Part shown: piece by piece, positions 12,993 through 13,499 of the stretch | How the letters are laid out: each line of letters starts with the position of its first letter | How positions within the stretch are numbered: position 1 is the first letter of the stretch | From: Octopus sinensis | Taxonomy: Eukaryota | Direction of reading: 5' to 3' | Assembly (NCBI RefSeq): GCF_006345805.1 | Contig: NW_021833545.1 | Coordinates: 1-27,638 of the forward strand | DNA: 27,638 bases | The notes under the pieces: generated by a model | What the model was told of the DNA's origin: nothing | What the model saw: the letters and a program-made list of their open reading frames with translations, nothing else | The model's database searches: none | Translations under genes and position numbers: made by a program

Positions 12993-13112
12993 GAGGGCAT
13001 TATTACACAAAATGCCACACGCTAGGAGGGACCTTCAAAGTCAATACTACCAAACATAAACGGATCGTACCGAATGCAGTTCTCAAAGCAAGACATTTAG
13101 AAAAAGAATTTA

Positions 13113-13176
13113 GTTCCAGATCACCTGTGATTTCGCAATTAACGTATTATCTACGCCTTTTGTTCATCAGTGAAAC
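13113..13176 (-). ncRNA. Type I hammerhead ribozyme motif (AUC cleavage triplet)
   Basis: Minus strand: GUUUCA-CUGAUGA-ACAAAAGGCGUAGAUAAUACGUUAAUUGC-GAAA-UCACAGGUGA-UC-UGGAAC. All three stems pair by hand. The only core-adjacent defect is A10.1-C11.1. Confidence 0.85.
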
Positions 13177-13499
13177 ATATTCAAAACATATCATAAATAA
13201 ACAAAACCGACCTACCAGGCGGAACCAAACAGACAACCGTTGAGTCCATCGTATATATACTTCTTACATATATATTATTTTTAAAGGCAGAAATAAAAGA
13301 AATAAAGGATGTAAAATAAAAAATACATATACAGTGCTTCAGCATGGCCACAGTCAAATGACTGAAACAAGCAAAAGAATAATATATATTGATATACACT
13401 TCTTACATACATTCTTATTGTTTTTAAAAAAGCAGAAAGAGATAATACTGAATGATAAAGTTAAATGAAAGCCCACTTAAAAGTACCTTGGATTGTAGG

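Follow-up and report, generated by a model that had tools for sequence, protein, structure and literature searches.

A type I hammerhead motif in Octopus sinensis belongs to a dispersed non-coding retrozyme family with Penelope-like insertion footprints

Metazoan non-LTR retrozymes have been described by Cervera & de la Pena in 2020 (PMC7229834) and by Li, Clavereau & Pollet in a 2026 preprint (10.64898/2026.07.22.740005). Circular templates and Penelope-like element (PLE) helpers were proposed for retrozymes in the 2020 paper (PMC7229834), and support from co-occurrence and homology is given in the available text of the preprint. The movement of animal retrozymes is still a proposal, to which the family described here adds the insertion footprints themselves. 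PLEs leave characteristic marks, namely 5' truncation, partial tandems, inverted 5' copies and a bias for (TA)n and other microsatellites (PMC8557442), and their reverse transcription initiates internally at two sites, with both target strands extended (PMC11167929).

The window analysed here is a stretch of 27,638 nucleotides from Octopus sinensis (contig NW_021833545.1, positions 1 to 27,638 of the forward strand). The original prediction placed a full-size type I hammerhead ribozyme on its minus strand at 13106..13182, in a mobile element of the retrozyme or Penelope kind ending at (TA)n. The helices, core and predicted cut were all found at these coordinates, and the family copies bear out the mobile element. 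The kind of element is known, the family is new, and the window locus is an ordinary, older, truncated copy. No published description of this family or of cephalopod hammerheads was found in the literature searched, as far as the available text of the sources goes; the supplements of PMC7229834 and of the 2026 preprint lie outside that search and may list it.

As in metazoan non-LTR retrozymes, the unit is non-coding, low in GC, arranged head to tail and equipped with a single canonical type I hammerhead; it occurs as monomers, dimers and multimers, its predicted circle is highly self-paired, and PLEs co-exist with it. In the available text of the two reports, invertebrate retrozyme circles measure ~170-400 nt and units over all families 51-972 bp, compared with 474-504 nt in Octopus (19 natural monomers, 65-98% identical). 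A further difference of the window subfamily is that its stem II is long, contains an internal loop and has A.C as a fixed pair, and the Octopus ribozyme, unlike most of those in metazoan retrozymes, is predicted to be masked in the circle. Dispersed insertions into (TA)n that have two arms and stop at either of two fixed 3' ends were not found described for metazoan non-LTR retrozymes in the available portions of these sources. The original prediction held that the hammerheads of PLE pLTRs and retrozymes are usually minimal, which stands for PLE pLTRs but not for retrozymes, where the full-size form is the rule (PMC7229834).

With Neptune-type, (TA)n-targeting PLEs (PMC8557442, PMC11167929, PMC6155905), as far as these are covered in the available text, the family shares 5' truncation, partial tandems, an inverted 5' arm, a microsatellite target, two alternative internal 3' ends and a type I hammerhead. 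In contrast to those elements the Octopus unit carries no ORF, its hammerhead is a full one with stem III and tertiary-contact bases where the PLE pLTR one is minimal, and its 3' ends lie ~110-120 nt apart rather than 30-40 nt. Satellite hammerheads of newt, axolotl and schistosomes likewise interrupt stem I with an internal loop after 6 bp, leave U1.7 unpaired and have a short, near-palindromic stem III through which a double hammerhead can form. They differ from the window subfamily in loop 2, whose place is here taken by an internal loop with an additional hairpin on top; in related subfamilies that hairpin is gone, and the bases of the loop remain as a GNRA tetraloop.

The hammerhead motif and its conservation

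The motif has the type I core CUGANGA ... GAAA ... UH with a three-way junction and an open stem I. All parts lie on the minus strand. Read from the letters, the 6-bp stem I (13176-13171/13118-13113) is extended by a distal stem of 4 bp (13182-13179/13109-13106) and adjoins the core CUGAUGA (C3-A9, 13170-13164). The whole stem II region (13135..13163) consists of A10.1 at 13163 opposite C11.1 at 13135, forming the base, a 3-bp stem IIa (13162-13160/13138-13136), an internal loop whose last A is 13139, and stem IIb, a 6-bp extension hairpin (13157-13152/13146-13141). GAA (G12-A14, 13134-13132) leads into a near-palindromic stem III of 4 bp with a 4-nt loop (13131-13128/13123-13120), followed by C17 of the AUC triplet at 13119, and hammerhead numbering predicts the cut between 13119 and 13118. 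An unpaired U1.7 lies at 13112; its predicted partner is the last A of loop 2. The motif may act as a monomer, as the original prediction had it, stem III being able to close as a hairpin; being near-palindromic, stem III is also predicted to form a dimer duplex (-11.2 kcal/mol). The window copy has one private change, A>G at 13156 in stem IIb, which turns A-U into G.U and is found in only 1 of 30 close loci. It would be able to cut a read-through transcript once, and because only one ribozyme is present it would make no circle by itself.

Taken alone, the window copy is not beyond chance, whereas the family is. A loose hammerhead pattern matched twice in the window against 1.14 expected, and the 77-mer has a folding z of -0.89; its minimum fold, in which the core pairs with stem III, is not a hammerhead (-12.3 vs -9.4 kcal/mol for the drawn hammerhead). 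The hammerhead was not the predicted minimum in any of 12 representatives, lying 0.2-5.9 kcal/mol above it (2.1 in the window copy). A search with the Rfam hammerhead models, which the original prediction had named as a check, gave no match at the locus up to E 10, and no match at the gathering score was found in six relatives, G-C forms among them.

The whole genome (2.72 Gb) was searched with patterns that fix the core and stem III only, reversed patterns being used as controls. There were 130 matches with AUC, 750 with AUA or AUU and 2,386 with a short stem II, and each reversed control gave 0; at least 3,266 hammerhead-shaped matches are thus present. As the original prediction had suggested should be checked on genomic copies, stems I and II covary across 32 copies, hand-picked to span the subfamilies: 11 of 24 pairs have changes on both sides, and 95.2% of cells are paired, compared with 26-42% when the register is slid in the same test. 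None of 500 shuffles reaches this alignment in four of five measures, and 18 of 500 do so in the fifth. RNAalifold recovers the three-way junction without constraint. In pattern-derived rows the invariance of the core and stem III is imposed by the search and is therefore uninformative.

Two conserved bases lie outside the search pattern. U1.7 is U in 224 of the 233 fetched matches, and the last A of the stem II loop is kept in 228; this pair has been proposed as the main tertiary contact in full-size hammerheads (PMC11875169, citing O'Rourke et al.). Among the relatives the extra stem II hairpin shrinks and then vanishes, leaving a 4-bp stem with a GUAA tetraloop made from internal-loop bases. 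Since the short relatives build their tetraloop from the same bases, the internal loop, which stands in place of their loop 2, is its equivalent. The stems, the core and the two contact bases are kept across units that are just 65-75% alike, which indicates that the fold is under selection.

The mismatch A10.1-C11.1 was at first read as a possible one-off G>A decay. This is contradicted by the closest loci, which have A in 29 of 30 cases and G in none, and by 425 exact A...C matches; A.C is fixed in whole subfamilies and is no damage of the window copy. The canonical 10.1-11.1 pair is absent from the window subfamily, while sister subfamilies have G-C there. In a non-random sample of fetched matches, the long-stem form (153 matches) has A.C in 75, G-C in 63, A-U in 6, U.U in 5 and G.U in 4, and the short-stem form has U.U in 42, A-U in 31 and other combinations in 7. 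One exact U.U 27-mer occurs 1,376 times, and U.U is carried by the most homogeneous subfamily, a short-stem one. Several switches at 10.1 are seen in an unrooted tree of 46 flanks, seven long rows of which are probably contaminated by flanking sequence; direction can be read only for an A.C clade nested in G-C copies and for U.U nested in short A-U copies. Natural U.U variants at 10.1-11.1 have been published (PMC3088659), one of them in axolotl HHR_Amex2 (PMC7229834), and the pair is therefore a consensus rather than a strictly defining feature. No published A.C at this place was found in the literature searched, within the available text. At the base of stem II, A.C probably slows predicted cutting and does not abolish it.

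The repeat unit and its insertion footprints

The window contains the unit once, as a 5'-truncated partial monomer of 263 nt on the minus strand (12991..13253) that corresponds to unit positions ~347-481 followed by 1-128, counted from the cut. It is 88-98% identical to dispersed copies (40 scored of 1,623 candidates). An element of ~260 bp at 12991-13250 had been predicted; its extent was nearly right (13253 to ~12991), as was the (TA)n 128 nt after the cut, but not its size, the piece being a truncated part of a tandem unit of ~480 nt. In longer copies the sequence 5' of the window piece is the continuation of its 3' end, giving a head-to-tail unit. At least two consecutive complete units are present in L059, L154, L194-L198, L214-L216 and L234-L239; the long-stem subfamilies have complete dimers and trimers, and the short-stem ones reach a two-armed array of 9+3 units and a 13-mer.

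The unit has no coding sequence and no LTR, the longest stop-free run on the ribozyme strand being 45 codons (L002 unit). An antisense frame of 109-150 codons is open in several copies and has no match in a Pfam search. As a circle, the L002 unit is highly self-paired, with a predicted energy of -102 kcal/mol (z -2.3, 60 shuffles). The predicted whole-unit fold has conserved long helices and masks the ribozyme core; 21 of 111 pairs outside the ribozyme covary, a count made on the alignment from which the structure was derived, with one of five measures at chance (273/500). Part of a long-range helix in this fold (helix 6) is formed by a 15-nt motif conserved across subfamilies (13018..13032, minus strand), with 3,088 exact matches in the genome against 1 for a control; its ~130 scattered matches in 596 Gb of prokaryote genomes are taken as background. 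A covarying hairpin, helices 20-21 of the fold, lies at 12996..13016 (minus strand), just 5' of the fixed end A, the putative start of reverse transcription. In the short-stem A-U subfamily (L214-L228) the hairpin before end A contains a tandem duplication of ~25 nt. A second hammerhead-like string at unit position ~260-300 was dropped, as it is one arm of a long-range helix. L089 and L114-L116 (and L156, L201) belong to a separate repeat family, in which a hammerhead has the same core and stem III and other stems and flanks; with an apparent period of ~320-420 nt, it is a possible second retrozyme lineage.

The 3' end of the window copy abuts a (TA)n target at 12926..12992, and a short TA run (13252-13259) flanks its truncated 5' end. 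Copies in the family have two fixed 3' ends followed by (TA)n, end A ~130-145 nt and end B 250-257 nt after the cut, and variable, truncated 5' ends. Of 190 contexts of end A, 85 stop in a TA run, as do 58 of the 118 contexts of end B (some contexts being counted twice), and most of the others run on into the unit. Two outward-facing arms are seen in 18 of 24 young loci, hand-chosen for being multimeric, with TA on both sides of nearly all of them. Truncated 5' ends, partial tandems, inverted arms, a microsatellite target and alternative 3' ends are all present. Together with copies that run across the cut site and over as many as 13 units, they mark the insertions as Penelope-like, with a template that is circular or uncut.

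A set of 30 loci (27 distinct places) was selected solely by the part downstream (3') of the cut. Of these, 28 extend 5' across the cut, 27 of them by at least 13 nt; the other two start at an inversion junction. Because no insertion in this set starts at the cut, cut linear monomers are not the template.

Each insertion appears to derive from a single template: among 46 complete units from 23 loci, units differ on average by 1.3 substitutions when they lie in one arm and by 0.6 when they lie in opposite arms, but by 19.4 when they come from different loci. In 6 of 12 multi-unit loci all units carry alleles that none of the other sampled loci has, but only 16 of 37 units of the young set are strictly nearest to a unit of their own locus. 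In older subfamilies, two units of one insertion are closest to each other in 2 of 24 pairs (5 ties), and within- versus between-insertion identity was rejected there as a measure, since it does not discriminate between a circle and a multimer.

The youngest subfamily is a short-stem U.U one (L234, G000:C1:38672500-38680500; L235-L237; G000:C1:143653189-143658981). Its arrays, which include the 9+3 array and the 13-mer, are made of units that are identical to one another inside a locus and also across unlinked loci. Such identity implies very recent spread, and this subfamily looks recently or still active.

Candidate helpers and competing explanations

Two young, abundant PLE-type families are present in the genome (18,006 and 11,942 first-look candidates). 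Their ORFs, of 811 and 624 aa, have RVT_1 matches above cutoff, weak GIY-YIG matches and a C-x-C-x2-C linker, and both elements end at (TA)n. The 811-aa family (L111:4824-7256, plus strand; L092-L110) is very young, with two 3' ends ~35 nt apart and frequent inverted pairs; an upstream frame of ~400-440 codons is open, and one copy adjoins L086. The 624-aa family (L254:3139-5960, plus strand) is C-rich and young, and has a minimal hammerhead-like motif with a palindromic stem III ~110 nt before its (TA)n end. No sequence shared between the retrozyme unit and either family was found (best E 0.019), and in this comparison of two PLE families both 3' ends are unrelated to the unit. The 811-aa PLE was rejected as partner, since its 3' region lacks a canonical hammerhead and it does not match the unit significantly. 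At L076/L254 a 624-aa PLE is joined to retrozyme end A; a template-switch chimera was considered and rejected, a later nested insertion at the common TA target being simpler because the retrozyme arms are not the same, whereas the PLE matches its family at 99%. The window itself holds a decayed PLE piece on the minus strand (22088-22408), whose GIY-YIG region is 67% like the 624-aa family. An open frame on the plus strand at 21638-22105 reads like a Penelope-type reverse transcriptase start, which we take to be a decayed PLE piece as well.

The family is probably best explained as a non-coding retrozyme of ~480 nt whose hammerhead cuts multimers to monomers, which become circles that are copied into (TA)n by a PLE acting in trans. 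Multimeric copies would be transcribed, the hammerheads would release monomers from the multimeric transcripts, and the monomers would be ligated to circles. The reverse transcriptase and GIY-YIG nuclease of a PLE would act in trans and nick (TA)n. Reverse transcription would then start from end A or B inside the RNA and roll on for anything from a fraction of a turn to many turns, often on both strands. Family contigs in four presumed-RNA runs were set aside as transcript evidence: start, strand and circle are not readable in them, and a one-unit skip would arise equally from tandem DNA.

The same insertions would be expected from a homogeneous uncut linear multimer. This bears against the circle explanation and is the basis of its strongest, though rather unlikely, competitor, which keeps the element and the PLE helper, makes the uncut multimer the template, and leaves the ribozyme slow or employed in some other step, with circles unneeded for spread. 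The most homogeneous subfamilies have a non-canonical 10.1-11.1 pair (A.C with 425 matches, U.U with 1,376), and no insertion starts at the cut, both as an uncut template would have it. In the available text of other studies, hammerhead mutants were without effect on insertion by the anole PLE (PAc) in vitro (PMC11167929), ribozyme-less non-autonomous Chlamys PLEs also insert as multicopy head-to-tail arrays (PMC8557442), and of 9 Xenopus retrozyme dimers a single one was cleaved in vitro (preprint 10.64898/2026.07.22.740005). An uncut template accords poorly, however, with the selection on the fold that is suggested by the stems, core and contact bases kept over divergent units, and with the retrozymes of coral, mussel and axolotl, which are mostly circular in vivo according to the available text of PMC7229834, where an axolotl family with U.U at the same place is also described.

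A more specific version of the circle explanation concerns the active lineage and is put forward tentatively. A PLE dimer might prime both (TA)n strands and roll round one 480-nt circle, generating two-armed concatemers of up to 13 units, and the subfamilies might repeatedly trade G10.1-C11.1 for A.C, A-U or U.U, which would weaken the ribozyme and so leave circles intact for the time that copying takes. The circle-template and helper questions are directly testable in this genome, where a natural series of hammerhead variants (G-C, A.C, A-U and U.U, with long and short stem II) occurs together with the footprints. Further assets are the very young subfamily, whose units recur unchanged at unlinked loci, and the intact candidate helper ORFs.

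It is improbable that the motif is a pseudo-LTR remnant of an autonomous PLE, with an ORF upstream in full copies. All insertion marks are PLE-like, and retrozymes are linked to pLTRs by homology in Xenopus in the available text of the preprint (10.64898/2026.07.22.740005). However, in the subset of the 3,000+ matches that was examined, every long copy is preceded on the 5' side of the unit by another unit, by an inverted arm or by (TA)n, and no PLE ORF with reverse transcriptase or GIY-YIG was found upstream on the ribozyme strand in the scanned loci; the unrelated 3' ends of the two young PLEs also speak against a remnant.

A satellite-type repeat amplified as DNA by unequal crossing-over, with the hammerhead as a relic, is very improbable. 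Some arrays do show later local duplication (middle units of L194 share variants; L199, L200 and L014/L015 are duplicated with their flanks), and the available text of the preprint (10.64898/2026.07.22.740005) favours an unequal-crossing-over route for arrays. Such amplification does not fit with copies spread over all large contigs, fixed 3' ends at (TA)n with random 5' ends, identical opposite arms or the recurrence of the same unit at unlinked loci. A chance hammerhead-like string, for which the folding z of the single copy, the loose pattern expected about once per window and the lack of an Rfam match might speak, is hardly credible, as it is refuted by the family covariation, the conserved tertiary-contact bases and the absence of matches in the reversed-pattern controls.

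Other features of the window

No host exon was established near the locus. A 32-nt stretch on the plus strand (12721-12752), between a pyrimidine-rich AG and GTAAGT, resembles a small exon and was not recovered by a simple exon scan; if it is a real exon, the retrozyme lies antisense in an intron. Two tandem arrays are present, one at 668-1240 (period 184 nt, 3.2 copies, 92% alike) and one at 3775-4851 (period ~158-207 nt), the latter derived from a common interspersed repeat and (ATT)n. An open frame on the minus strand at 25646-26047 resembles what we take to be the C-terminus of an RTE-type LINE protein.
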